Origin: Candidatus Cryosericum sp.
GTDB lineage: Bacteria > Caldisericota > Caldisericia > Cryosericales > Cryosericaceae
DNA: 46,045 bases
Assembly: GCA_049699855.1 (NCBI GenBank)
Contig: JBNAWM010000003.1
Span: forward strand, 1-46,045
Reading direction: 5' to 3'
The translations under genes and the position numbers were made by a program. Position 1 is the stretch's first letter, and every line of letters begins with the position of its first letter. Below are positions 2,556 to 14,609 of this stretch, piece after piece. The notes beneath the pieces are model-generated. The model did not search any database and was not told the DNA's origin. It worked only from the letters and a program-made list of their open reading frames with translations.

Positions 2556-2585
2556 TTCTGTATGAAGAGCATCAGCAGGAGTGCG

Positions 2586-3752
2586 ATGGAGCAGTTTGGA
2601 CGTCCGACATGGCTCGAGATTGACCTGGCACGGATCCGGAACAACTATCATGTTGTCCAGAGGTTGGTTCCGGCAAAGACGCACATTGTCTGTGTGGTCA
2701 AGGATGATGCGTATGGACACGGCAGTATCCCTGTTGCAACTGCGCTTCAGGAAGAAGGCGCAGACTGGTTTGCCGTCGCGACGCTGGAAGAAGCTCTTGA
2801 ACTGCGCGAGGCAGGGATCACTGGAAGGATGCTGGTGCTGGGTTCTGTCCCTGCAGCCGGAGTTCTCGAGGCTGTCGCTCACGAGATCACCCTGACCATT
2901 CCGGACGAGGACACTGCCCGCCGGCTCTTGGAAGCAGCCCAGGGCAGGAAGCTGACGGTACACCTGAAGGTTGATACGGGGATGGGCAGAACCGGAGTGC
3001 TGGCTGAGGACGCGCTGGAGGTGCTCCATCACCTGAATGGGGCTAAGGGCTTGGTGGTTGAGGGCGTGTATTCGCACTTTTCCTGCGCCGACTCAGATGA
3101 ATCGTATTCGTCCATGCAACTGCGCCGGTTTGAAAAACTACTGCACAAGGCTACGGTCGAGGGAATCCGCCCGCCAATCGCGCACTTTTCGAACTCTGCC
3201 GGCATCCTCACGATGAACACGGCCATGCTGGATGCTGTGCGCCCTGGATTGCTGCTGTACGGCCTGTCCCCCATCGAGGGGGTTCCCATTGCGGGCCTGA
3301 GCCCTGCAATGTCGATGAAGACGCGCATTGTCTCGATGAAGCAGGTGCCGGCTGGATATGGCATTGGCTATGGACGCAGCTATCTGACGTACAAGACAAC
3401 GGTTGTTGGTCTTCTGCCGGTTGGCTATGCGGACGGGTATTCGCGCATGCTGTCCAACAAAGCCTCTGTTCTCCTCCATGGGAGGCGTGCGCCGGTGATT
3501 GGGAGAATCGGCATGGATCAGACGACGATTGACTTGTCTGACATTCCTGACGCGAGGGTGGGAGATGATGTCGTATTGATGGGTGAAGCAGGCAGCCAGC
3601 GCATCACGGGCGGCGACCTTGGTTCTCTTGCCCAGAGTATCAGCTATGAGATCCTGACGACGGTTGGAAAACTGGTGCGCCGCGAATACACAGACCACAG
3701 TGGCTTGGACGCCGCAGAGTCCCAGGAACATCCACAACCCGAACCACAATGA
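2586..3752 (+). CDS. alr: Alanine racemase
   Basis: RPTWLEID, VVKDDAYGHG (PLP lysine), HLKVDTGMGR, GYGRSY, PVGYADG, ISYEILT; AGGAG SD. Confidence 0.93.
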   Translation: MEQFGRPTWLEIDLARIRNNYHVVQRLVPAKTHIVCVVKDDAYGHGSIPVATALQEEGADWFAVATLEEALELREAGITGRMLVLGSVPAAGVLEAVAHEITLTIPDEDTARRLLEAAQGRKLTVHLKVDTGMGRTGVLAEDALEVLHHLNGAKGLVVEGVYSHFSCADSDESYSSMQLRRFEKLLHKATVEGIRPPIAHFSNSAGILTMNTAMLDAVRPGLLLYGLSPIEGVPIAGLSPAMSMKTRIVSMKQVPAGYGIGYGRSYLTYKTTVVGLLPVGYADGYSRMLSNKASVLLHGRRAPVIGRIGMDQTTIDLSDIPDARVGDDVVLMGEAGSQRITGGDLGSLAQSISYEILTTVGKLVRREYTDHSGLDAAESQEHPQPEPQ

Positions 3753-4576
3753 AGCACGATTCCAGGTACCATTCGATCCAGGCATCGCTGAAGAAGCTCC
3801 TTGCAGCCGTTCCATTTCCCTGCGCAGTACATGCCGAACTCCTGAGCGGTGAGGACCCGTGTGTCATCTACTCTCAGAATGCAAACCTTGTTTTTGGCGC
3901 GGCGTCAGTCATCAAACTTCCTCTCCTTGTGTGCGTAGAAGAACTGATCGAAACAGGCGCGCTGGCGTGGGATCAGCCCGTGGTGCTCACGGTGCCGGCG
4001 CCTCACGGTACGGGCCTTCTCGAGTTTCTTGACTGCAGTCGCCCGTGGACTATTCGAGACCTTAGTGTCTTGATGATGGGCACATCCGACAACATGGCCT
4101 GCAACCAGCTGCTGGAAGTGGTGGGAATGGCGCGGGCAAATGAGATCCTTCGTGTCCTGGGCTATACCGCTACTGTGGTTCGCAGGCGCATGATGGACCG
4201 GGAGAAACTGGCTCTGGGTGTTGACAACACGGTGACGGCGCTGGAGACGGCCGATATGCTCTCCAGGCTTCACGCTGGCCGTCTCATCTCGGCAGAAGCA
4301 AGTGCAGAGACTCTCAAATACCTGCGTATGAACCAGCTCAGGGACCTCACTGCCTGGCCGCTGCCGGGGAGCGTCGTGCTGGCAGGGAAGACCGGCGGGA
4401 TGCCCGGTTCGCTGCTGGATGCAGAACTCATCAGTATTCCGGGAGGGTCTACCTACTCCCTCTGCGTGTTTACCTCGGGGTTTGAGCGCGCGCTTCAGGC
4501 AAAGCGCCTTATCAGCGAGATTTCGGAACAGCTCTACGCCGCTGTTTCCGGAAGCGGGGGTGAGGGCTGCGACTGA
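3749..4576 (+). CDS. Serine hydrolase, class A beta-lactamase-like fold (no signal peptide)
   Basis: SVIK (SxxK), SDN and KTG motifs; ATGA overlap with the alr stop. Confidence 0.85.
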   Translation: MKHDSRYHSIQASLKKLLAAVPFPCAVHAELLSGEDPCVIYSQNANLVFGAASVIKLPLLVCVEELIETGALAWDQPVVLTVPAPHGTGLLEFLDCSRPWTIRDLSVLMMGTSDNMACNQLLEVVGMARANEILRVLGYTATVVRRRMMDREKLALGVDNTVTALETADMLSRLHAGRLISAEASAETLKYLRMNQLRDLTAWPLPGSVVLAGKTGGMPGSLLDAELISIPGGSTYSLCVFTSGFERALQAKRLISEISEQLYAAVSGSGGEGCD

Positions 4577-4602
4577 GCGTCGTTCCCTCCGCACTTGCAG
4601 AC

Positions 4603-5307
4603 CTAGATATTTCCACGGGCGCTGACAGAGAGCATGGGGTACCTGTGCTGCAGGGTCGTGGCAAGCTCATTCAGACTTCCTTGATCAAATCCTCTGGCTT
4701 GGAGGAAACGAGGGTCAAGGGTCTTTGACGGGACAAAATTCTGGAGGATATACCGCGAGCCCGAAGGAAGCATGGCTGCAACATCCATGATGTCCTCTTC
4801 GCCAAAAAGCATGGGCAGGACCGTTGTGCGGAACTCAGTGGCTACACCGGAATCAGCCAGCAGTTGGATCGACATTCTAGCGAGAGCAAGAGCTTCGGGG
4901 TTTGCAGTTACCTCGGCGTAGCGGGCAGGGGGAGCTTTGACATCCATTGCGACATAGTCAAGCAATCCTGCTTCCAGAAGAAGCCGAAGCATGTCTGGAT
5001 TTGAGCCGTTGGTGTCCAGCTTGACGGCAAAGCCAAGACGCCGCATGTGATCGATGAACTGTGGCAGATCTGCATGCAGAGTGGGTTCTCCCCCGGTGAT
5101 GCAAACACCGGTCAGCTTGCCCCTCCGCCTCCCGAGAAAAGTGAAAAAAGTCTCCTCAGTGAGACTGGGAGTCTCTGTGGTGACTGTGACCAGTTCGGGG
5201 TTGTGACAATAGGGACACCTGAAATTACAGCCGACGGTAAACACGGTCGCGGCTAGTTTCCCCGGAAAGTCGTTCAGCGAAAGTGGTTCATAGTGGGCAA
5301 GTCTCAT
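4603..5307 (-). CDS. nrdG: Anaerobic ribonucleotide reductase activating enzyme (radical SAM)
   Basis: SLNDFPGKLAATVFTVGCNFRCPYCHN (CxxxCxxC), ITGGEPT, KLDTNGS, YVAMDVKAP, EFRTT; GAGAGG SD. Confidence 0.9.
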   Translation of the reverse strand: MRLAHYEPLSLNDFPGKLAATVFTVGCNFRCPYCHNPELVTVTTETPSLTEETFFTFLGRRRGKLTGVCITGGEPTLHADLPQFIDHMRRLGFAVKLDTNGSNPDMLRLLLEAGLLDYVAMDVKAPPARYAEVTANPEALALARMSIQLLADSGVATEFRTTVLPMLFGEEDIMDVAAMLPSGSRYILQNFVPSKTLDPRFLQARGFDQGSLNELATTLQHRYPMLSVSARGNI

Positions 5308-5340
5308 GAGAGAACCTCTCGATTGCCAAGATGCGCCGTC

Positions 5341-5394
5341 AGAAACGAAAGACGCTCCTGGCGGGTCTGTCATGACCGGCGGCCAGAAGCGTCT
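5341..5394 (-). terminator. Intrinsic terminator-like hairpin between the small NrdD gene and nrdG
   Basis: Minus strand AGACGCTTCTGGC...GCCAGGAGCGTCT 13-bp stem (one G-U), inner GGTC/GACC stem, followed by TTCGTTTCT. Confidence 0.6.
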
Positions 5395-5406
5395 CCTCTA
5401 TCGGGA

Positions 5407-5604
5407 TTATTGTGCAGAGCTGTGTTCTTTTCTTGCTTCGAATGTCCTTCTCTCGGACCACTCAGCTTTCTTTCCCTTGTTCCACTGTGCTACCGGTCTC
5501 AGATAGCCAACCACCCGGCTGTAGACTTCTGTTTTTGTACGCCGGCTGGCGGGCACGACCGTCCCGTTCTCCAAGAGAAGATCTCCATTTTCAAGTTCTC
5601 TCAC
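5407..5604 (-). CDS. nrdD: Stand-alone glycyl-radical domain of class III RNR (NrdD C-terminal fragment, 65 aa)
   Basis: TEVYSRVVGYLRPVAQWNKGKKAEWSER matches the NrdD C-terminal glycyl-radical signature; GTG start with GAGGAGGTGA SD. Confidence 0.9.
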   Translation of the reverse strand: MRELENGDLLLENGTVVPASRRTKTEVYSRVVGYLRPVAQWNKGKKAEWSERRTFEARKEHSSAQ

Positions 5605-5628
5605 GTATCACCTCCTCGTCATAACTCA

Positions 5629-5637
5629 ATTATACCA
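5629..5637 (-). promoter_or_regulatory. Extended -10 element TGGTATAAT
   Basis: Perfect TGnTATAAT 24 nt upstream of the small nrdD gene start. Confidence 0.55.
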
Positions 5638-5644
5638 CAAAATG

Positions 5645-7090
5645 TCAATTGGATAGCGTGACACTTCCTGTTGCGACGAACGCTGAAGTCCCTGATGGAA
5701 GAAGGATCTGAACGACGCGCCCCTCTGCCGTCATATTGATGGCAACAACACTGTCTCCTTTGGAGAGACTGGTTGAAGCCAGTTGCGTCAAACCTGCATC
5801 CAAGTAGACCTTGACGGTCGCAGGCGCGCTTACCCTGGCAAACGGAAGATAGGTCGAATTCCCACGCGTGATCTGGGCATAGGCGCCATAGACCCATCCT
5901 GTCTTTCCTTTGGCCTGTCCCAGTCCTTTTGCCTGGATCCATCCCTGGCCCAGTGCAAGAGCGGTGCGTTTCTCGGTGGGTGCGGCCACCTCGAGGACGG
6001 TACTGCCAATCGTGACTGGCTGGTCGCGGAACATCAGTCCGGTTTCAGTTGTCAGTATCGGCGCAGACTGTTTGCCAGCCGCTACCGGCGCGCTGTCCCC
6101 GGTGAACTGATATGCGAACATCGAAGGAGAGCTGCCCTTCACGACAAGTCGCGGTTTGCTTGAGCCCTCCACGTACTGCCATGTCTCGTAGGTGAGCGGA
6201 GCAGTCTTGCCATCGGCGCCCGTTCCTGAACCATAAATGCCGAGCTCGTACACGATCGTTTTACCATCCATCGAACGGGAGGCTCCGCGCACAAAGGGCT
6301 GAAGGATGCTGCTTGAGGTCGGTGGTGGCGTGATGCTGGTGATCTTGCCGTCCTGTGTCTTGATTCCAAGGAAAGAACCCTTCGTGTCCTGCATGATGCC
6401 AAAGAAGGTGCCATCGGCAAATGTCACGCCTGACGGGCCAAGGAACGTGTGGGCAGTGTCGAACCCCAGGCTCGATGTTCCTACTGTCCAGATACCTCCG
6501 GGCGAGACGACGAGGGGAGTGGATCCGTCCAGGATCAACCGCGTTGTTCGATCGAACTGTTCTTTGGTGATGGGAACTTGGGTCCAGAATGAGCTGTTGG
6601 TCGTGCCATCATATCCGAGGGACGTCACGGTCAGCTGCAGCAGTCGCGTGACGGTCGTTGGTGCAGCCTGTACAAGTAGAACGCCATCAGACGTGCACAG
6701 GAGCTTCGGCGCCATCTCAGCTTTTCCCTGTACACTGACCAGTTCCTGCTTGGATGTCATCTTGTGATCCACGAGCTTGAACGACCCGTCCGCTTCGCTG
6801 GTCATGTAGACAATTTCGCCGCCTGCGGGATGCCAGTCAAATGCGGATACTGTGCCCAGCTTGGTGAGTTGTGTCTTGCGCCCGTTTACCCATTGCCAGA
6901 GGTCGCCTTTGTCAAGGTAGATACCTATGTCATTCTTGGTGGGTTTGGTCGAGGTTCCTGTTCCCGGGGACTGCGCTGTTGACTTCGAACCTATGGAGCG
7001 CAGTACAAAAAATAAGGAAACGGCTATGACCACTACAGCAATGGCAAGGATGACGATTCTCTTCTTTGGACGTCGACGAAATCCACTCAT
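5645..7090 (-). CDS. Hypothetical N-terminally anchored exported protein (beta-rich, possibly propeller-like)
   Basis: Basic N-terminus plus one TM helix, then a S/T/G-rich beta-strand sequence; AGGAGG SD overlaps the nrdD stop. Confidence 0.75.
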   Translation of the reverse strand: MSGFRRRPKKRIVILAIAVVVIAVSLFFVLRSIGSKSTAQSPGTGTSTKPTKNDIGIYLDKGDLWQWVNGRKTQLTKLGTVSAFDWHPAGGEIVYMTSEADGSFKLVDHKMTSKQELVSVQGKAEMAPKLLCTSDGVLLVQAAPTTVTRLLQLTVTSLGYDGTTNSSFWTQVPITKEQFDRTTRLILDGSTPLVVSPGGIWTVGTSSLGFDTAHTFLGPSGVTFADGTFFGIMQDTKGSFLGIKTQDGKITSITPPPTSSSILQPFVRGASRSMDGKTIVYELGIYGSGTGADGKTAPLTYETWQYVEGSSKPRLVVKGSSPSMFAYQFTGDSAPVAAGKQSAPILTTETGLMFRDQPVTIGSTVLEVAAPTEKRTALALGQGWIQAKGLGQAKGKTGWVYGAYAQITRGNSTYLPFARVSAPATVKVYLDAGLTQLASTSLSKGDSVVAINMTAEGRVVQILLPSGTSAFVATGSVTLSN

Positions 7091-7104
7091 GCGCAGTGTA
7101 CCTC

Positions 7105-9156
7105 CTACCTTTCACGGCCGGTCGCGAACGGGATGTCCTTCGAGACAGGATGAGCGGCAGAATTTTGTGCCTCAGCAATCAGTTCTTCATCGCAAAGAGG
7201 GCAGAACGGGTGATTTCCGGCGATATACCCGTGTTTCGGGCAGATAGAGAACGTCGGCGTCAACGTGAAATAAGGAAGCCTGTAGCTACTTGTCACGGCT
7301 TGCACCAGCTGCTTTGCCTGGTCTGCACTCTCCAGCCGTTCGCCAAGGAAGAGGTGGAGCACGGTGCCCCCTGTGTACTTTGTCTGGATGGGATCCTGAA
7401 GATCAAGGGCTTCAAACGCATCGGTCGTATAGCCGACTGGCAACTGAGTTGAGTTGGTGTAGTATGGATCGGCACCGTCCCTGAACGCTCCCTCGTTTGC
7501 GACGAGAATGTCCGGGTAGAGCGCCTTGTCCTGCTTTGCGAGGACGTAGGTCGCCGACTCGGCCGGACTCGCTTCGAGATTGTAGAGCTGGCCGCTCTCA
7601 TGCTGGAACTGCTCCAGTCTGCTCAGCATGAAGTCCATGATCTCAAGGGCGAGCTGCTGTCCTTCGGGATCGGCAATCGTGACGCCTGCAAAGTTCAGCA
7701 GCAGCTCATTCATGCCATTGATGCCTATGGTGTTGAAATGGTTTGCCCAATACGTCCCGTTGCGCTCCTTGACACCGTCAAGGTAGTGACGCGAATAGGG
7801 ATAGAGGCCAGCCGCCGTAAGATTTTCAATGATTTTTCGCTTGATTTCCAGCGACGTTCGGGCGACATCCATGACATGGGAGAGACGTTCAAGCAATTCA
7901 CCTTTGCTGCGAGAGAGATAACCGATTCGTGGGAGGTCGATGGTGACAACGCCGATCGATCCAGTGAGCGGGTTTGCCGCGAACAGTCCGCCACCCCTCT
8001 TCTGCAATTCACGCGTGTCGAGCCGGAGGCGGCAGCACATGGAACGCGTGTCGTCCGGACTCATGTCGCTGTTCACGAAGTTGCTCCAATATGGAATGCC
8101 GAACTTGGCTGTCATCTCGAAGATGGGGTCATAGACGGGATTCGCCCAGTCAAAGTCTCTCGTGATGTTGTAGGTGGGGATGGGGAACGAAAAGACCCGT
8201 CCTTTTGAGTCACCTGCCAGCATGACCTCTGCAAAGGCTCTGTTGAACATGTCCATCTCGGGCTGGAATTCGGCGTATGTTTCGTCGATGGGCTGACCTC
8301 CAATGATCGCCTGTTCGCCTGCTGTGGCACCATGTGGTTTCAAGTCCAGCGTGATGTTGCTGAAGGGGGACTGGAATCCCGAGCGCGTTGGAACATTCAT
8401 GTTGAAGACAAACTCCTGAACAGCTTGCTTCACCTCATCATAGCGCAAGTGATCGTTGCGGATGAAGGGTGCGAGGTAGGTGTCGACGGAACTGAACGCC
8501 TGTGCTCCGGCTGCTTCACCCTGCATGGTGAAGATGAAGTTGACCATCTGCCCCAGGGCTGATCGGAAATGCTTGGCGGGTTTGCTCTCGACCTTGCCAT
8601 AGACGCCACCCAGTCCCCTGAGAAGGAGATCCTTGAGATCCCAGCCCACACAGTAGGCAGCCAGGTAGCCCAGGTCATGAATGTAGAGATCACCGCCCAC
8701 GTGCGCATCGCGAACCTCGGGGGGATACACCTCATTCAGCCAGTACCGGCTGACGACGCTGGTGGCCAGGTGCATGTTCAACCCTTGAAGGGAGTAACTG
8801 GTGTTGGAGTTCTCATTGACACGCCAGTCGAGTTTCTCCAGGTACTTCTGGATGGTTTCGCGCGGGTCAAGAAGCGTCTTCAGGTCACGCAGTTTGCGAT
8901 GCTGCTCGCGGTACAGGATGTACGCTTTGGCAGTCTTGTGATGGCGTGACTCCATGAGCGTCTGCTCAACCAGGTCCTGTATCTGCTCAACGGTCGCAAT
9001 GTCATCAGGAATCTGGGCAACAATGATGCGTGTGAGGCGGTCGGCCTCGGCTTCGTCGAACTCCTTTGTAGCTTTGCCTGCTTTCGCAATGGCTGCATGG
9101 ATTTTCGCCGGGTCAAACTCCACCTTCTCGCCTGTGCGCTTGATTACATATCGCAT
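7105..9156 (-). CDS. nrdD: Anaerobic (class III) ribonucleoside-triphosphate reductase, large fragment with ATP-cone, lacking the glycyl-radical loop
   Basis: VIKRTG ATP-cone, YIHDL, YCVGW, SMCCRL, TGSIGVVTI, YNLEASPAE, YTNST, YTGGTV and C-terminal CPKH...CPLC; no RVxGY motif. Confidence 0.93.
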   Translation of the reverse strand: MRYVIKRTGEKVEFDPAKIHAAIAKAGKATKEFDEAEADRLTRIIVAQIPDDIATVEQIQDLVEQTLMESRHHKTAKAYILYREQHRKLRDLKTLLDPRETIQKYLEKLDWRVNENSNTSYSLQGLNMHLATSVVSRYWLNEVYPPEVRDAHVGGDLYIHDLGYLAAYCVGWDLKDLLLRGLGGVYGKVESKPAKHFRSALGQMVNFIFTMQGEAAGAQAFSSVDTYLAPFIRNDHLRYDEVKQAVQEFVFNMNVPTRSGFQSPFSNITLDLKPHGATAGEQAIIGGQPIDETYAEFQPEMDMFNRAFAEVMLAGDSKGRVFSFPIPTYNITRDFDWANPVYDPIFEMTAKFGIPYWSNFVNSDMSPDDTRSMCCRLRLDTRELQKRGGGLFAANPLTGSIGVVTIDLPRIGYLSRSKGELLERLSHVMDVARTSLEIKRKIIENLTAAGLYPYSRHYLDGVKERNGTYWANHFNTIGINGMNELLLNFAGVTIADPEGQQLALEIMDFMLSRLEQFQHESGQLYNLEASPAESATYVLAKQDKALYPDILVANEGAFRDGADPYYTNSTQLPVGYTTDAFEALDLQDPIQTKYTGGTVLHLFLGERLESADQAKQLVQAVTSSYRLPYFTLTPTFSICPKHGYIAGNHPFCPLCDEELIAEAQNSAAHPVSKDIPFATGRER

Positions 9157-9240
9157 GTGTCGCCCCCTGATATCATCGATGGCCGTGAATTGTTCTGCAC
9201 AGGATACTCAGGCTCTGAGGCCTTCAACTGGCATGGATTC

Positions 9241-9268
9241 ATTTTAGGGCCGCCGGCAGGTGCGTCAA
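9241..9268 (-). promoter_or_regulatory. Putative nrdD promoter TTGACG-N16-TAAAAT
   Basis: Near-consensus hexamers 84 nt upstream of nrdD. Confidence 0.6.
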
Positions 9269-9348
9269 GTATTGTGAAGATGCGGTGCAGGGGCTTGACA
9301 AGGATTCATTTCTTCCATAGGGTTCAGTTCTTCCGGCGCACGAGATTT

Positions 9349-10884
9349 TTAGAACGTGATGGGCTGCTGCCGATTTGCCCTCTTTGCCCCGGTCTCGGCC
9401 CGCACTGCAGACAGAAGCTCCAAATAGGCTTCACGCGCGTGGCTCGCCTGCCCGAGGTCCACATCCTGCTTGGAGTAGCGGGCGACATAGAAGCCAGATG
9501 CGAGGCTTTCCAGGCACGATGAAACAACTTCGGAGCGTTGGCGCGTTCGGAGAACCAGCTCCTCCGGCGTTTCGCCTCGGGCAAGAGTGATGGCCATATC
9601 TTTGAGAGCAGCTACCCCCATGTAGAACAGGGCAATGACCGCCTCTCGAGGGTTGGCGGCCAGAGATGCTTCATCGAGTGACGCCACGCGGCGGATGGAT
9701 ACGGCTATTCGTTTGCGTTCCCGGGGATCCGGAATGTTGAGAAGGAAGCCGAAGCGCGTATCAAAAATCGCCTTCGAGAGGATAAGAGCTACGCTTATGA
9801 CAATAGCGAGAGTGGCGGCAGAGGCAGTGACAGCGCCGAGCACCTGAAGCCAGGATGGTACTGAGCGCGTTACCTCATGAAGCGCCTGACCGACAGCCGC
9901 AGGCTGCTGGGCTTTGGCGAGTCCACTGACAGCCGCCAGCTGTTGATAGAGCTTTATGAGCGCAGGCCCGTGCGGCAGCTGGAGGCTCGAAGCAATCAAG
10001 ACAGCGGCGACGACGGCGCCCAGAAGGAGGAGTGGGAGGGTCAGCATGCGCAGAACATGCGAGAGCGGGTTTCGGGTGATAAGGAGCAGCATGAGGAGTC
10101 CCACAAGCAGGGTCATCAATCCGAGAATCAGAGGCACTGCCAGTGGCGTCAGCACCCGGGTCAGCGTGTCGACCCACAAGTTGAACAAAGGTGCGGCATA
10201 GCGGATCAGCGGGGCTGGGCCTGTCTCGGGTGTGACCTCGGGGGTTTTCGGCCCGGAGGAAGGAGGCAGGTGAGCAGTGGGCGAGAAAGCATGCTGGACA
10301 GCCTCAGCAAGAGGTCCCTGTACTGGAGAACGGCCCACTGGCAAAATGCCCGCAGCGATCACCATGAACATGAGGATGGTGAGAAGAAGGATAAGAGGTC
10401 GCAGATTGTGTCGTTGCGGCGATTTCTGCCAGCTGGCAACAGCGGCTGTACCTGCAAGAACTGCGAGGGCTATGGGCACCGTCCAACCCTGGACTTCGCC
10501 CGTCACCGTGGAGACAATGGCGAACCAAACGATGAGTGAGGCGGAATAGCGTGGAAACCCACGCGATATGACAAGTGCGGACGTTCCCGCTGTCAGTCCA
10601 GCAAAGACAAGTGCCAGCGCCACCGTGGCCAGGACAACCTCGGTGTGTGGTGAGCGCAGGGTTGTGAGAAGAACAACAGTCAAGCCGGCGATCCCCAGTC
10701 CCCAGAGGAGCCAGGTCAGTCCAGGACGGCGCGCAGCAAGCGCCATTGCCAGCGCAACACACGGCAGGAGTGCGAAGGGCGCCGGCACGGCAGCACGGGC
10801 AAGCCACCAGGCAAGGAAGCCGGCCACAGCCGCCATCAGAAGCCGTTGGGCAGAATCGTCGGACCAACCGAGACGCTTCGTCAT
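9349..10884 (-). CDS. Polytopic membrane protein with C-terminal DUF4129-like domain (copy 3)
   Basis: Many TM segments; C-terminal RGETPEEL...FYVARYS. Confidence 0.75.
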   Translation of the reverse strand: MTKRLGWSDDSAQRLLMAAVAGFLAWWLARAAVPAPFALLPCVALAMALAARRPGLTWLLWGLGIAGLTVVLLTTLRSPHTEVVLATVALALVFAGLTAGTSALVISRGFPRYSASLIVWFAIVSTVTGEVQGWTVPIALAVLAGTAAVASWQKSPQRHNLRPLILLLTILMFMVIAAGILPVGRSPVQGPLAEAVQHAFSPTAHLPPSSGPKTPEVTPETGPAPLIRYAAPLFNLWVDTLTRVLTPLAVPLILGLMTLLVGLLMLLLITRNPLSHVLRMLTLPLLLLGAVVAAVLIASSLQLPHGPALIKLYQQLAAVSGLAKAQQPAAVGQALHEVTRSVPSWLQVLGAVTASAATLAIVISVALILSKAIFDTRFGFLLNIPDPRERKRIAVSIRRVASLDEASLAANPREAVIALFYMGVAALKDMAITLARGETPEELVLRTRQRSEVVSSCLESLASGFYVARYSKQDVDLGQASHAREAYLELLSAVRAETGAKRANRQQPITF

Positions 10885-10885
10885 T

Positions 10886-12124
10886 TCAGATCTCCGAAAG
10901 AGACTGCAAGGTGTCGTTGATCCCGATGATGGACAGATCTACGCCAGCCCCCCGCAGAACCTTTTGAACTGTTCTCAAACGATCTATCTGAGCGTAGTCC
11001 TGCATGAAATAGGGGGTCTCGTGCTCAGTGTAGTGACGGAAACTCCCCTGAGGAAACAGGGCGATCGACAACCTGGAGAACTGGGCGCGCATCCTGAGCA
11101 ATATCCCAATTTCCGCCTCAGTCATTTCCTGCTGGATGAGAAACAGCTGCGAACGCGGTGGAATAGCAAACCGCCTGCTTTGCAGGTAGTCCAGGAAAAT
11201 GGCTTTGTCCGGATCGGGTTCGAGGGCGGAACGCGCGCGCGCGAGTATTGAAAGGCATTTGACAAGATGTGCTCCGCCATTTCCAAAACCACTGCTGCTT
11301 TGTTCCTGGCCCAGCACAATAAGTCCAAAGGGGAGGTGAGCATCGTTGGCATAGTTGGCGATGGAGCCAGCGACCGTCGACAGATAGTCTTCGAATGCAT
11401 CGGTGTCGAAGATAGGAGTATGGCGCAGCGTCAGATTGAGGAGAATAACGATCGTTTTGGACGCGCTTGGGCTGAAGTCTTTGGCATACAGCGTTGACGC
11501 ATGGGCACTGGCCTTCCAGTGAATGCGGTTCATGGGATCGTTTGCATACGCATGGATCCCCGTCAACTGGCTTGTGTCATAATTGGGGGCGAAGCGCACG
11601 CGCTGTCCATCCAGAGGGGAGGTCAGGGCGATGCGCAGGCGCGGAAAGGAGAGCAGACGCGGAAAGGCGGTGACATACTCTGAACCGGGAAAAACGCGGC
11701 TGAGCGAGAAGACCCCAAAAATGTCTTCGACTGTCACTGTGGTGTCGCCCAGCCGGTATTCGCCGCGGCGATTGACCTCGAAAAAGATCGTCAAACCGCG
11801 CGGCGCAGGTCGCTCAAGTTTCCTGATGAGATAAGGGGGCAGATTCATGGCAAGGTGGTATCTCACCGGGTTCCACGAGCCGGTTTCGCCCAGGGTTATG
11901 TTTGCCATGTCGGGCTTTCCCATCATCACAAGTCGGTGTTTGAGCGTGACAGAGATGCTTGCCCGGTCCAGGGAGCGTACCAGGACGAGAGGCATCACCA
12001 GGCTGTACAGAAGAACTATGCAGGCCGCGAGAAAGAGCGCATTCCCTCCCATGATGAACCACAACAACGCCAGCACGGCTCCAAGAGCCACACCTCGAGA
12101 GGCAGTACGTGCGTACTGACTCAT
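10886..12124 (-). CDS. DUF58 (vWA-like) MoxR-associated protein (copy 3)
   Basis: RRGEY, DIFG, DPMNRIHWKASAH; two N-terminal TM segments; ATGA overlap with moxR. Confidence 0.85.
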   Translation of the reverse strand: MSQYARTASRGVALGAVLALLWFIMGGNALFLAACIVLLYSLVMPLVLVRSLDRASISVTLKHRLVMMGKPDMANITLGETGSWNPVRYHLAMNLPPYLIRKLERPAPRGLTIFFEVNRRGEYRLGDTTVTVEDIFGVFSLSRVFPGSEYVTAFPRLLSFPRLRIALTSPLDGQRVRFAPNYDTSQLTGIHAYANDPMNRIHWKASAHASTLYAKDFSPSASKTIVILLNLTLRHTPIFDTDAFEDYLSTVAGSIANYANDAHLPFGLIVLGQEQSSSGFGNGGAHLVKCLSILARARSALEPDPDKAIFLDYLQSRRFAIPPRSQLFLIQQEMTEAEIGILLRMRAQFSRLSIALFPQGSFRHYTEHETPYFMQDYAQIDRLRTVQKVLRGAGVDLSIIGINDTLQSLSEI

Positions 12125-13071
12125 TGCTTGCTGTAGTCTGCGAGTTTGGGGATCGGGACGTTCTTGAGAGTGGTGGTCACAACTTCAGTGGTCGTGACGC
12201 CACGCAGGCGTGCTTCGGCCTGAAGGATGAGACGGTGACCAGCGACAAAAGGAAAAACGGTTTTGATGTCGTCCGGAATGACAAAGCTGCGATTCTGGAG
12301 GTACGCATATGCTTTGCCGAGGCGCATGAGATCAATGCTGCCGCGTGGCGAAAGGCCAAGGTAGACAGTGTCATCATGCCGAGTCGCATCGACCAGCGAA
12401 ACGATATAGCTGATGAGTTCAGAGGCGATGAAGACCGTTTCGACCTCTTTCTGCATGGCGATCAGTTCTTCACGGGAAATGATCTGGACGTCATCACTGA
12501 TGATTCTTGAGCGTGCATAGAAACCGGTGACGATCTCCTCTTCCTTCTCCTTGCTCGGGTAGCCTATCGTGAGGCGTGTCATGAAGCGGTCCAGCTGGGC
12601 CTCGGGAAGTGGGAAGGTTCCTTCGTATTCGATCGGGTTCATCGTAGCCATGACAAAGAAAGGACGCTCGAGTTTCACGATGGTACCGTCGATCGTTACT
12701 TGATATTCAGCCATGGCCTCGAGAAGTGCAGACTGCGTCTTGGGCGTTCCGCGATTGATCTCGTCCGCCAGCAGGAGATTGGTGAAGATAGGCCCTCGCT
12801 TCAATCTGAACTCCTGCGTTTTCTGGTCATAAACAGACACTCCGGAAATGTCGGAGGGCAGGAGATCGGGGGTGAACTGAATGCGTTTGAATTCAAGTCC
12901 AAGAGACCTGGAGATGAGATTAGCCAGCGTCGTCTTGCCTAGACCCGGCACATCCTCGAGAAAGATGTGTCCGCCTGCCAGAACGGTGGAAAAGGCGATA
13001 TCGACGACGGTATTCTTCCCGACAAAGTACTGCTCGACGTACGTTATGGCCTTGTTCAAGTTTTCGTTCAT
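12121..13071 (-). CDS. moxR: MoxR-family AAA+ ATPase
   Basis: LEDVPGLGKT (Walker A), RIQFTPDLLPSD, LADEINR, ATMNPIEYEGTFPLPEAQLDRF, SPRG; GAGGGAG SD. Confidence 0.95.
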   Translation of the reverse strand: MNENLNKAITYVEQYFVGKNTVVDIAFSTVLAGGHIFLEDVPGLGKTTLANLISRSLGLEFKRIQFTPDLLPSDISGVSVYDQKTQEFRLKRGPIFTNLLLADEINRGTPKTQSALLEAMAEYQVTIDGTIVKLERPFFVMATMNPIEYEGTFPLPEAQLDRFMTRLTIGYPSKEKEEEIVTGFYARSRIISDDVQIISREELIAMQKEVETVFIASELISYIVSLVDATRHDDTVYLGLSPRGSIDLMRLGKAYAYLQNRSFVIPDDIKTVFPFVAGHRLILQAEARLRGVTTTEVVTTTLKNVPIPKLADYSKQ

Positions 13072-13107
13072 TGTCTGCTCCCTCTCTGATCTTCTACCGA
13101 CCTTACC

Positions 13108-13134
13108 ATTATAGGCCGGCTGGCTCAAAATCAA
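13108..13134 (-). promoter_or_regulatory. Possible internal moxR promoter (TTGATT-N15-TATAAT)
   Basis: Perfect -10 in the 59-nt gap upstream of moxR; -35 spacing is short. Confidence 0.4.
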
Positions 13135-14609
13135 TGCTGGCGGCGGGTCTGCCTCTGTGTCCGAGCCTTTTCACTGCGCAGGTTGCGAGCGCAGACCCTC
13201 AGCTCCTGAAGACTCTTCTTTGCCGTCAGGACATCTTCACCGCCAACACTCAAAGGCGTATACCTCGCTTTGACAAACAGATCTGCAAGTGTGTTCAGCT
13301 CGCTGGAGCATGCAGGCACCTCTGTGACAACACGCTGAGCGAATTCTGTAGCAGTCTCTCCGCGCCTCAGACGCGGACCAATTTGCGCAACGGTTTCAAC
13401 GCCGAGCGCAAAGAGCGCCGTGATGCTGGTTACTGGATCCTGAAGCAGCGATTCCTGATCCATGGAGACCAGGCCACGGATCGCTCTCATGGTCTTTTTG
13501 CGATCTGAGTGTTCGAGCAGGGACAAAAGAACTTCATGGCGAAACTCGAAGACCATATCTCGAATACTGGCCACGAGAGAGACAAGGAGAAGACTGGACC
13601 CGATCCAGTAGACTGCCGCTGCGATTGCCTCCAGCGTTGGTTTTACCTCTGTCTGTTTGTCGGGGAGGATTCGTTCGGTTCTCAGCAGATCGATGACGTC
13701 GTTGAAGTTGTCGATTCCCAGACGGCCGGCCTCACCAATGCTGTTCAATATCTGCGCAGTCTTGGTCCCTGTGTAGATAATGGTGAAGAGGAGGGCCGTT
13801 GTTACTAGGCTGATAGGGAAAATGAGGAGGCGAATGGTCTTGCGCCACGTGTTGTGGAGGACCGAAATGGAGAGGATCATTGCGGCCGCCAGCATGGCGC
13901 TCATGAAGGCCAGGGGAACGTACATGAAGCCGAATAGCTCCCAGAAGTGATCCTGCAGAATCCGGCGTAGAGTGAGAACGGGGGGAACGATGGAAACGCT
14001 CCCTGTCCCGGAAGGTACCGGCGTTGAAGAAGGCGTTCCCGGAACAAGCCAGACTGCTGCGGTGGGCAGCGTGGGAGCTCGCATGATGGGAGAGGCGACT
14101 GCTGCCGCAAACACGATGACGAGAATGACAAACCCTGGGATAAGACGCTTTAGAGCATTCGGGTCGAGGGTCGTCACGGCAGAAAGCATGGATGAAGCCA
14201 GCATGATCACCAGAACGACAGCGGGGATGAGAGGATCGGTATTGCCAAAGATGGCATAGCAGCAGGCAAGAATAGCTAAGCGAAGGAAGTGCACTGGCGA
14301 TTCCGCAGCAAGAACAAAGTTGCCAGCAAGCCAAAAGTACACTTCGAACAGCACTGCGAGCAGGAGAATCGCAATGAGCTCCTGCAGGGTGTGTCGGCTG
14401 GCGGTCAGAGCAAGATAGATGATGAGGAGGCATGTCTGGAGACCGTGATAGACTCGGAAGAGTCTTTGGTTGCGGTGTTGCAGGGCGATATTCAGGATGA
14501 CGAACGCGGCAATGCCAAACCACCAGGGAACGGCAAGCCGGGCAATCCAGTACGCCAGGAAACACGAAGCATTGGCAACAATCAGGCGGGCGAGACGCTG
14601 TGCATCCAT
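13131..14609 (-). CDS. Polytopic membrane protein with C-terminal DUF4129-like domain (copy 2)
   Basis: TM-rich; RRGETATEF...FVKARYT; paralogous to 9349 and 15966. Confidence 0.75.
   Translation of the reverse strand: MDAQRLARLIVANASCFLAYWIARLAVPWWFGIAAFVILNIALQHRNQRLFRVYHGLQTCLLIIYLALTASRHTLQELIAILLLAVLFEVYFWLAGNFVLAAESPVHFLRLAILACCYAIFGNTDPLIPAVVLVIMLASSMLSAVTTLDPNALKRLIPGFVILVIVFAAAVASPIMRAPTLPTAAVWLVPGTPSSTPVPSGTGSVSIVPPVLTLRRILQDHFWELFGFMYVPLAFMSAMLAAAMILSISVLHNTWRKTIRLLIFPISLVTTALLFTIIYTGTKTAQILNSIGEAGRLGIDNFNDVIDLLRTERILPDKQTEVKPTLEAIAAAVYWIGSSLLLVSLVASIRDMVFEFRHEVLLSLLEHSDRKKTMRAIRGLVSMDQESLLQDPVTSITALFALGVETVAQIGPRLRRGETATEFAQRVVTEVPACSSELNTLADLFVKARYTPLSVGGEDVLTAKKSLQELRVCARNLRSEKARTQRQTRRQH

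Follow-up and report, generated by a model that had tools for sequence, protein, structure and literature searches.

A separately encoded glycyl radical loop of class III ribonucleotide reductase in Candidatus Cryosericum, other lineages and phages

The window analysed here is a stretch of 46,045 nucleotides (nt) from a Candidatus Cryosericum sp. genome (GCA_049699855.1, contig JBNAWM010000003.1, positions 1 to 46,045). It contains nrdD, the gene for the catalytic chain of a class III ribonucleotide reductase (RNR), without the loop that bears the radical glycine. A preliminary description of this DNA proposed that the loop is encoded 1.5 kb downstream by a gene of 65 amino acids (aa), and the open reading frames (ORFs) together with complementary profile coverage support this. 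We observed that the split is real, conserved and widespread, wider than first noted. With good confidence, we explain the whole by a two-gene class III RNR with a separate radical chain. We also report small genes carried by phages without a large chain or an activase, which are new here.

Large and small chains in Cryosericum

The large chain scored 1009.9 bits against NF006126/PRK08270 (cut-off 548) and 479 against TIGR02487 (cut-off 326). The nrdG product scored 210.6 against TIGR02495 (cut-off 131.15), the cognate radical-SAM activase family. The large chain carries an ATP-cone (3-87), an NxN flap (N116/N118), C169, the finger loop SMCCR (372-376) and E528, and the catalytic and Zn residues were invariant across 58 split chains. 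The Pfam NRDD model (562 positions) covered the large chain with positions 1-529 and the small protein with positions 531-562, which makes the two pieces exactly complementary. The elements of class III NrdD (PRK08270/NF006126, the MCCR finger-loop subclass; T. maritima 4COI/4U3E, P. copri 8P23) are complete across two genes: ATP-cone, NxN flap, barrel cysteines, Glu, Zn site, RxxGY loop and NrdG2. Class III RNRs are defined by a loop on the same chain; because the large chain lacks it, the enzyme is a variant and not a canonical member. Described NrdDs carry the Gly loop C-terminally on a single chain, whereas here we observed a separate loop gene and a CxxC-D-E-E tail on the large chain that is specific to split forms.

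The Zn site is on the large chain, as the preliminary description had it, with the motif CxxH...CxxC (C639, H642, C652, C655) followed by a tail that begins D656-E-E. Because the Zn site stays there, and the ‘glycyl radical domain’ of the literature takes it in (PMC11226230), the small gene corresponds to the Gly-loop half of that domain and not to all of it. The large-chain tail indeed lacks an RVxGY loop, but it is not wholly ‘non-conserved’, as first described: an Asp follows the last Zn Cys (CxxC-D) in 142/142 split chains versus 2/59 fused ones. In both of these fused chains a linker precedes the loop.

The small protein consists of a Caldisericota-type N-terminal extension, an SRVVGY loop with Gly33, and a WNKGK helix. 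A profile of 90 small proteins against NrdD 608-644 aligned Gly33 to Gly621, the radical site of T. maritima NrdD. The protein matched PF13597 only; PF01228, the Gly_radical family of pyruvate formate-lyase type, was absent from it and gave one match in the window genome, to an 846-aa frame on C43. Folded alone, this very short chain gave a mean predicted local distance difference test score of 83.7 and a predicted template modelling score of 0.44, with Gly33 flanked by strands at 26-29 and 34-37, followed by a helix at 38-50. The model had no structural match at Z ≥ 2, a result that says little at this chain length.

The window genome (97.9% complete) has a single nrdD and a single NrdD-type RxxGY loop, so that no full-length nrdD was found elsewhere in it. 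Among 40 relatives, the large chain was matched in 21/22 congeners and the small gene initially in 22/22. The small-gene match in one genome (G017, 81% complete; E = 7.6e-4) was dropped, with no motif-bearing ORF present there, which leaves both pieces in 21/22 congeners and neither in G017. In 12 congeners the order nrdD, 481-aa gene, small gene, nrdG was found on one contig. Compared with 14 congeners, the small gene had non-synonymous differences (pN) of 0.07-0.16, far below the synonymous differences (pS) of 0.68-0.90, which indicates purifying selection.

We did not detect PF02867, the class I/II barrel, in the 23 genus genomes, the five of family f3 or the four of family f5. It was detected in 9/9 genomes of families f2 and f4 and in 12/14 controls. 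PF17975, a marker of monomeric class II RNR, was found in 0/5 genomes. These data suggest that the split pair is probably the sole RNR of Cryosericum. With both pieces in 21/22 congeners and a class I/II RNR detected in 0/23 genus genomes, the pair very probably forms the working enzyme.

The locus itself is very unlikely to be a product of misassembly. Contigs from two other studies (runs X2 and X7) each cover the whole 5-kb locus unbroken at about 94-95% identity (272 and 300 differing letters), and the sole listed indel is intergenic. An Rfam search over 4400-9600 gave no relevant intron match at E ≤ 0.1, and no intein or endonuclease Pfam family was found on the large chain, the small protein or the 481-aa protein.

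Other lineages, stand-alone copies and phages

The split was also found in other Caldisericota, Synergistota, Patescibacteria, one archaeon, Campylobacterota and Proteobacteria. All five f3 genomes and one of family f2 (G035) have it with other spacers, and three f5 genomes are fused. We observed it in a Micrarchaeota genome, Magasanikbacteria, Falkowbacteria, Paracoccus denitrificans and C. metallidurans. Among annotated records, those of Sulfuricurvum, Bradyrhizobium, Ralstonia and Cupriavidus necator have it too, with the small gene labelled nrdD or hypothetical; both pieces were already annotated in databases, as had been suspected for the short one. The best 150 profile hits (of 4970) at the 50% cluster level included 149 of 42-123 aa, and 1183 related proteins of 35-114 aa were found, some of them presumably fragments. 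When applied to the 120 database proteins, ‘split’ says that the protein lacks the loop and nothing more.

Gene layouts differ among these lineages. In a single-contig genome (G040), nrdD is separated from the small gene by thyX and a 694-aa gene on the opposite strand, with nrdG a further 1.36 Mb along the sequence. Acetomicrobium (L041) has the order nrdD-nrdG-small. These non-adjacent, reversed and opposite-strand layouts exclude frameshifting or read-through. In many genomes nrdD and the small gene are adjacent, and translational coupling is probable.

We built an unrooted tree of 100 rows from the NrdD core, cut before the Zn site. The sample is biased to split forms (120 proteins were retrieved with a split C-terminus), and six rows were removed for length before de-duplication to 100. 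The distribution of split and fused forms needed seven changes, five of them forced, compared to a shuffled mean of 31. Two chains fused through linkers (P0143 and L030) lie within split clades. These results suggest that fission and re-fusion recur. This tree gave no support to a single origin of the split.

Several variants of these genes were met along the way. In three f3 genomes thyX lies right behind nrdD (L001 5713-6339, L003 3167-3793 and L004 3261-3887; Pfam Thy1 checked in two of the three). In G024 (L004 2260-3129) an insert of 870 nt breaks the small gene one base past the radical Gly codon; it likely represents a group I intron, with a LAGLIDADG ORF, a terminal G and a hairpin that resembles P1 and ends in U, and Rfam gave no recognition. 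A 914-aa frame in G036 (L006 624-3365) holds a split-type large chain with about 230 inserted aa, probably an intein, between matches to query residues up to 375 and 373-663. A longer stand-alone form (some 115-145 aa), in which a CxxC...CxxC domain of its own precedes the Gly loop, was seen in Desulfobacterales (L058, L082, L091 and L100) and in the archaeal virus ANMV-1 (L104), where the large chain is absent.

Ten genomes were tested because of a detached small gene. Four of them (G087, G088, G089 and G093) encode a stand-alone copy beside a full-length NrdD whose loop is intact. In two others (G091 and G092) the NrdD loop reads SGVVKY, so that the Gly is lost, and an intact stand-alone copy lies elsewhere. 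Of the rest, G095 and G096 carry the split, as does G090 with two copies of the small gene, and G094 is truncated at a contig end. The small stand-alone glycyl-loop proteins GrcA/YfiD of E. coli and Y06I of phage T4, which are autonomous glycyl radical cofactors of pyruvate formate-lyase (PMC8683613), are likewise found in cells and phages. The small protein differs from GrcA in that it matches Pfam NRDD and no Gly_radical family, is about half the size, and is obligate in Cryosericum rather than spare. The GrcA-type spare layout, a stand-alone gene with a full-length enzyme, is absent from the window genome and was seen in the four genomes above. The genomic pattern is that of GrcA/Y06I, without membership of the GrcA family.

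On a pHG1-like plasmid of C. necator (453 kb, NZ_CP066020.1; L210 1962-5038), NrdD has 676 aa and 76.2 kDa and lacks the loop. Next comes a 66-aa gene whose product has TRVMGY. In this NrdD the Gly of the Zn-knuckle CPTHGY, outside an RxxGY loop, is residue 650. PMC2864759 cites 1999 work on C. necator for essentiality and gives NrdDG as Rmet_5137 and Rmet_5139, with one gene skipped.

A search with the small protein found 49 viral loci. We examined 47 viral records (46 from IMG/VR and ANMV-1), of which 44 matched the C-terminal part of NRDD alone, two held a whole NrdD and one was cut off. All 13 near-complete records (≥90%) had the small part alone, without a large chain; six of these have terminal repeats. 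A radical-SAM domain over cut-off was found in 0/13, with five weak partial hits. The small gene was of Cryosericum type in 12/13, and one record (G045) has two copies. Its placement varied among phage genomes; in two (L118 and L120) it lies between terminase and portal. Phage small genes keep the radical Gly and surrounding residues and are under purifying selection (pN 0.11-0.29, pS 0.46-0.91).

We found several links between these phages and the genus. A Glu-Trp signature was present at 38/49 viral loci (25 distinct segments), 18/18 Cryosericum loci and 0/82 other cellular loci counted. It is not exclusive, as it also occurs at cellular L172 and low-GC viral L150. Most of the signature-bearing viral loci share the Caldisericota N-terminal extension, and one phage small gene had 71-86% DNA identity to genus genes. 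Between the window genome and the viral loci, DNA-level sharing was limited to the small gene. A 36-nt repeat of clustered regularly interspaced short palindromic repeats (CRISPR) type was found in 5/23 genus genomes. The single spacer of G018 (L189 893-1000) matches phages G044 (31/36) and G045 (30/36), and a 14-spacer array in G010 (L198 1501-2547) matches 7/35 viral records at 79-94%, with three spacers in G064. A reversed-sequence control gave a hit in 1/20 cases, a 24-nt flank. Two short hits (G001 and G002) and all but one of eight others lay outside arrays and were rejected as spacers. A simple repeat test found no CRISPR array in the window genome. Genus assemblies contain homologs of the phage lysin, terminase and portal at 56-69% identity. 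The imperfect spacer matches, the signature, the N-terminal extension and these homologs suggest that Cryosericum is the likely phage host. The spacer-matched phages form a set of 30-46 kb that is apparently undescribed. Phage-type lysin genes, with 56-69% identity to those of the phages that carry the small gene, also lie among short repeats in chromosomal-looking context in G020, G001 and G007 (L179-L181).

Probable mechanism and alternatives

The two-component RNR first proposed from this locus has strong comparative support from conservation, purifying selection, the lack of another detected RNR and the gene layouts. That the large and small chains form a heterodimer is highly likely on this comparative basis. 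In such an enzyme, NrdG would put the glycyl radical on Gly33 of the small chain, which would then dock into the 683-residue catalytic chain and let nucleotide reduction start. From solved NrdD structures, the Gly33 hairpin would be expected to go into the barrel by the finger-loop Cys C375, the third residue of MCCR, and the helix after it to span the barrel top. The Zn site and the new tail led by Asp-Glu-Glu would remain on the large chain. The covalent loop enters the barrel beside the finger-loop Cys in P. copri and T. maritima NrdD, and the glycyl radical domain is mobile in solved NrdD structures (PMC11226230).

Sequence signals suggest how the small chain might be expressed. The preliminary description noted a Shine-Dalgarno sequence, a perfect extended -10 and a terminator-like hairpin, and all three are present. 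TGnTATAAT occurs just 13 times in the 1.63-Mb genome. TATAAT or TATACT was found at the same place 5' of the small gene in 15/16 genus sequences, with varying flanks. A hairpin folds past the small-gene stop in 16/16, with two-sided change at 7/9 consensus pairs among 15 aligned sequences and a modest consensus energy of -6.6 kcal/mol. Because of the conserved -10, and the opposite-strand gene that separates the two genes in G040, we infer that the small gene is independently transcribed. A putative promoter of its own and a leaky terminator predicted ahead of nrdG could place the small chain in excess.

Oxygen destroys glycyl-radical enzymes at one peptide bond. By analogy with GrcA/Y06I, scission at Gly33 would ruin just the small chain, 65 residues instead of 683, which could then be exchanged. 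Class III RNR is cleaved by oxygen at the radical (PMC3019208). Phages that supply their own small chain might, by the same analogy, raise host deoxynucleoside triphosphate (dNTP) output. A replaceable oxygen-labile part has circumstantial support from the small-gene-only phages, from full-length NrdD with a spare, and from decayed loops with an intact copy. We consider it rather likely that phage copies help the host RNR. Exchange and oxygen repair of the small chain we judge to be evenly balanced. The same even judgement applies to the wider proposal that autonomous glycyl-radical subunits are widespread and overlooked, obligate and expressed separately where NrdD is split, spare beside a full-length NrdD, and carried alone by phages so as to sustain the only RNR of the host.

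Several observations weigh against parts of this reading. The genomes are mostly metagenome-assembled genomes (MAGs) of 61-98% completeness, although eight genus genomes reach 90% completeness or more and G040 consists of one contig. The perfect form of the extended -10 is not kept throughout the genus, and no conserved or good -35 was found. The hairpin has a weak U-tail, and a consensus scan of the window listed neither it nor the small-gene promoter. The spacer matches are imperfect (79-94%, best 29/30), and none of the spacers comes from the window genome. The anaerobic lifestyle of Cryosericum and many carriers, together with the interleaved split and fused forms, fits a neutral split equally well. 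Finally, Siedow and colleagues reportedly described in 1999 a 76.2-kDa NrdD of C. necator whose deletion abolished anaerobic growth; they are said to have placed the radical site at G650 on the large chain and to have found that G650A abolishes function in H16.

A functional heterodimer that arose by neutral fission is a possible though somewhat doubtful alternative. In this case the chains would assemble once, without exchange or repair, and phage copies would raise dosage; the heterodimer core is the same as in our preferred explanation, and the purpose alone differs. Repeated fission and re-fusion on the tree, the linker-fused chains within split clades, the many anaerobes among carriers, and adjacent, probably coupled genes in many genomes all suit it. 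However, stand-alone copies beside full-length NrdD in 4/10 genomes and small-gene-only phages both demand action in trans and in excess, and the internal -10 and hairpin are conserved.

A role of the phage copies as decoys or takeover factors, which would occupy the host large chain or NrdG, or as a means to escape dATP inhibition, is unlikely. Their varied genome positions, including that between terminase and portal, and the two copies in G045 would suit such a role, but they retain the radical Gly and its neighbours under purifying selection. Moreover, a DNA phage needs dNTPs, in a host without another detected RNR.

Very improbable is a radical Gly on the large chain itself, in the Zn-knuckle HGY (G650 in C. 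necator, G643 here), with the small protein as an accessory. The position of residue 650 in the 676-aa C. necator NrdD is in line with this, and G643 is invariant across the 58 split chains. However, HGY is also present in fused NrdDs that possess RxxGY, the radical Gly of solved enzymes lies in the RxxGY loop past the Zn site, and structure by itself would call for a Gly in the Zn knuckle. If the account of the 1999 work is right, the split enzyme already works in vivo, and the radical site there was misassigned. An artefact or decay (misassembly, a pseudogene, or recoding or splicing into one chain) might be suspected in a window from a fragmented MAG, and phage nrdD genes in fragments have been documented (PMC3653736), but independent contigs spanning the locus, agreement among 21 congeners, the lack of an intron family or intein, the reversed and opposite-strand layouts and purifying selection leave it a negligible chance.

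RNR catalytic subunits made from two genes are known from split class II NrdJa/NrdJb, Aeh1 NrdA-a/NrdA-b and intron- or intein-split phage nrdD, and NrdJa/NrdJb and Aeh1 are described as two chains. Those splits remove a reductant domain or stem from mobile elements, whereas here the radical cofactor is isolated and travels alone. In the literature searched, with most subscription papers outside its scope, no account of an NrdD glycyl loop with a gene of its own came to light; this covers parts of PMC9669993, PMC4390871, PMC9531940, PMC13450708, PMC4493059, PMC2795772, PMC3653736, PMC11226230, bioRxiv 2022.04.23.489257, PMC3019208, PMC8683613, PMC2864759, PMC5645315 and PMC8463856. A 2026 review names formate lyases as the sole class of glycyl-radical enzymes with identified spare parts (PMC13450708). 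Spare parts in other classes are called possible in PMC8683613, and both papers pose as open whether repair parts exist beyond pyruvate formate-lyase.

If the wider proposal of autonomous glycyl-radical subunits is true, a spare-part system would for the first time be known beyond formate lyases, and the radical site would be reassigned in the genetically studied C. necator enzyme. The small proteins are expressible candidates in three configurations (obligate, spare and phage-borne), including from the tractable hosts C. necator and Paracoccus denitrificans, and a natural substrate of 65 residues would ease structural work on NrdG and radical transfer. One survey drops RNR sequences below 400 aa (PMC9531940); surveys with such a floor are blind to the small genes. 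Phage annotation takes them for fragments and not for auxiliary metabolic genes.

Features of the locus

The features are listed in Table 1. The gene layout was as first described, except that the description had omitted the 481-aa gene that fills the gap between nrdD and the small gene. Its position was unchanged in every congener locus examined. The protein has an N-terminal hydrophobic anchor, with beta-propeller and SH3-like leads at ≤0.90 and no family above cut-off in profile searches, and is likely a passenger unrelated to RNR. For nrdG, the relatives begin at the equivalent of 5307 and the ATG at 5373 sits within the hairpin; the most likely start is therefore 5307. The sigma-70 consensus scan found two sites versus 1.7 expected in shuffles.

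Table 1. Positions of features at the split nrdD locus in the window
Feature	Position	Strand	Remarks
Putative sigma-70-like site TTGACG-16-TAAAAT	9241..9268	-	Upstream of nrdD; consensus match alone, weak
nrdD large chain, 683 aa	7105..9156	-	ORF and NRDD/NF006126 profiles
Intervening 481-aa gene	5645..7090	-	ORF; between nrdD and small gene
Extended -10 TGTGGTATAAT	5629..5639	-	Ends 24 nt before small-gene start
Shine-Dalgarno sequence AGGAGGTG	5609..5616	-	5' of small gene
Small gene, 65 aa, GTG start	5407..5604	-	ORF; Gly33 codon 5506-5508
GC-rich hairpin, weak U-tail	5349..5395	-	Directly past small gene
nrdG activase (TIGR02495 NrdG2)	4603..5307	-	ORF open to 5373; likely start 5307

Upstream of nrdD (9349-14609) we read a MoxR-like AAA ATPase, a DUF58-like gene and two DUF4129-type membrane genes; these names come from sequence reading, with one sub-cut-off DUF4129 match as profile support. 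On the other side (2562-4576), an alanine-racemase-like gene is followed by a gene for a protein of class A beta-lactamase fold (PF13354), convergent on nrdG. The latter protein scored under the bla_class_A cut-off; the two genes probably serve cell-wall metabolism.

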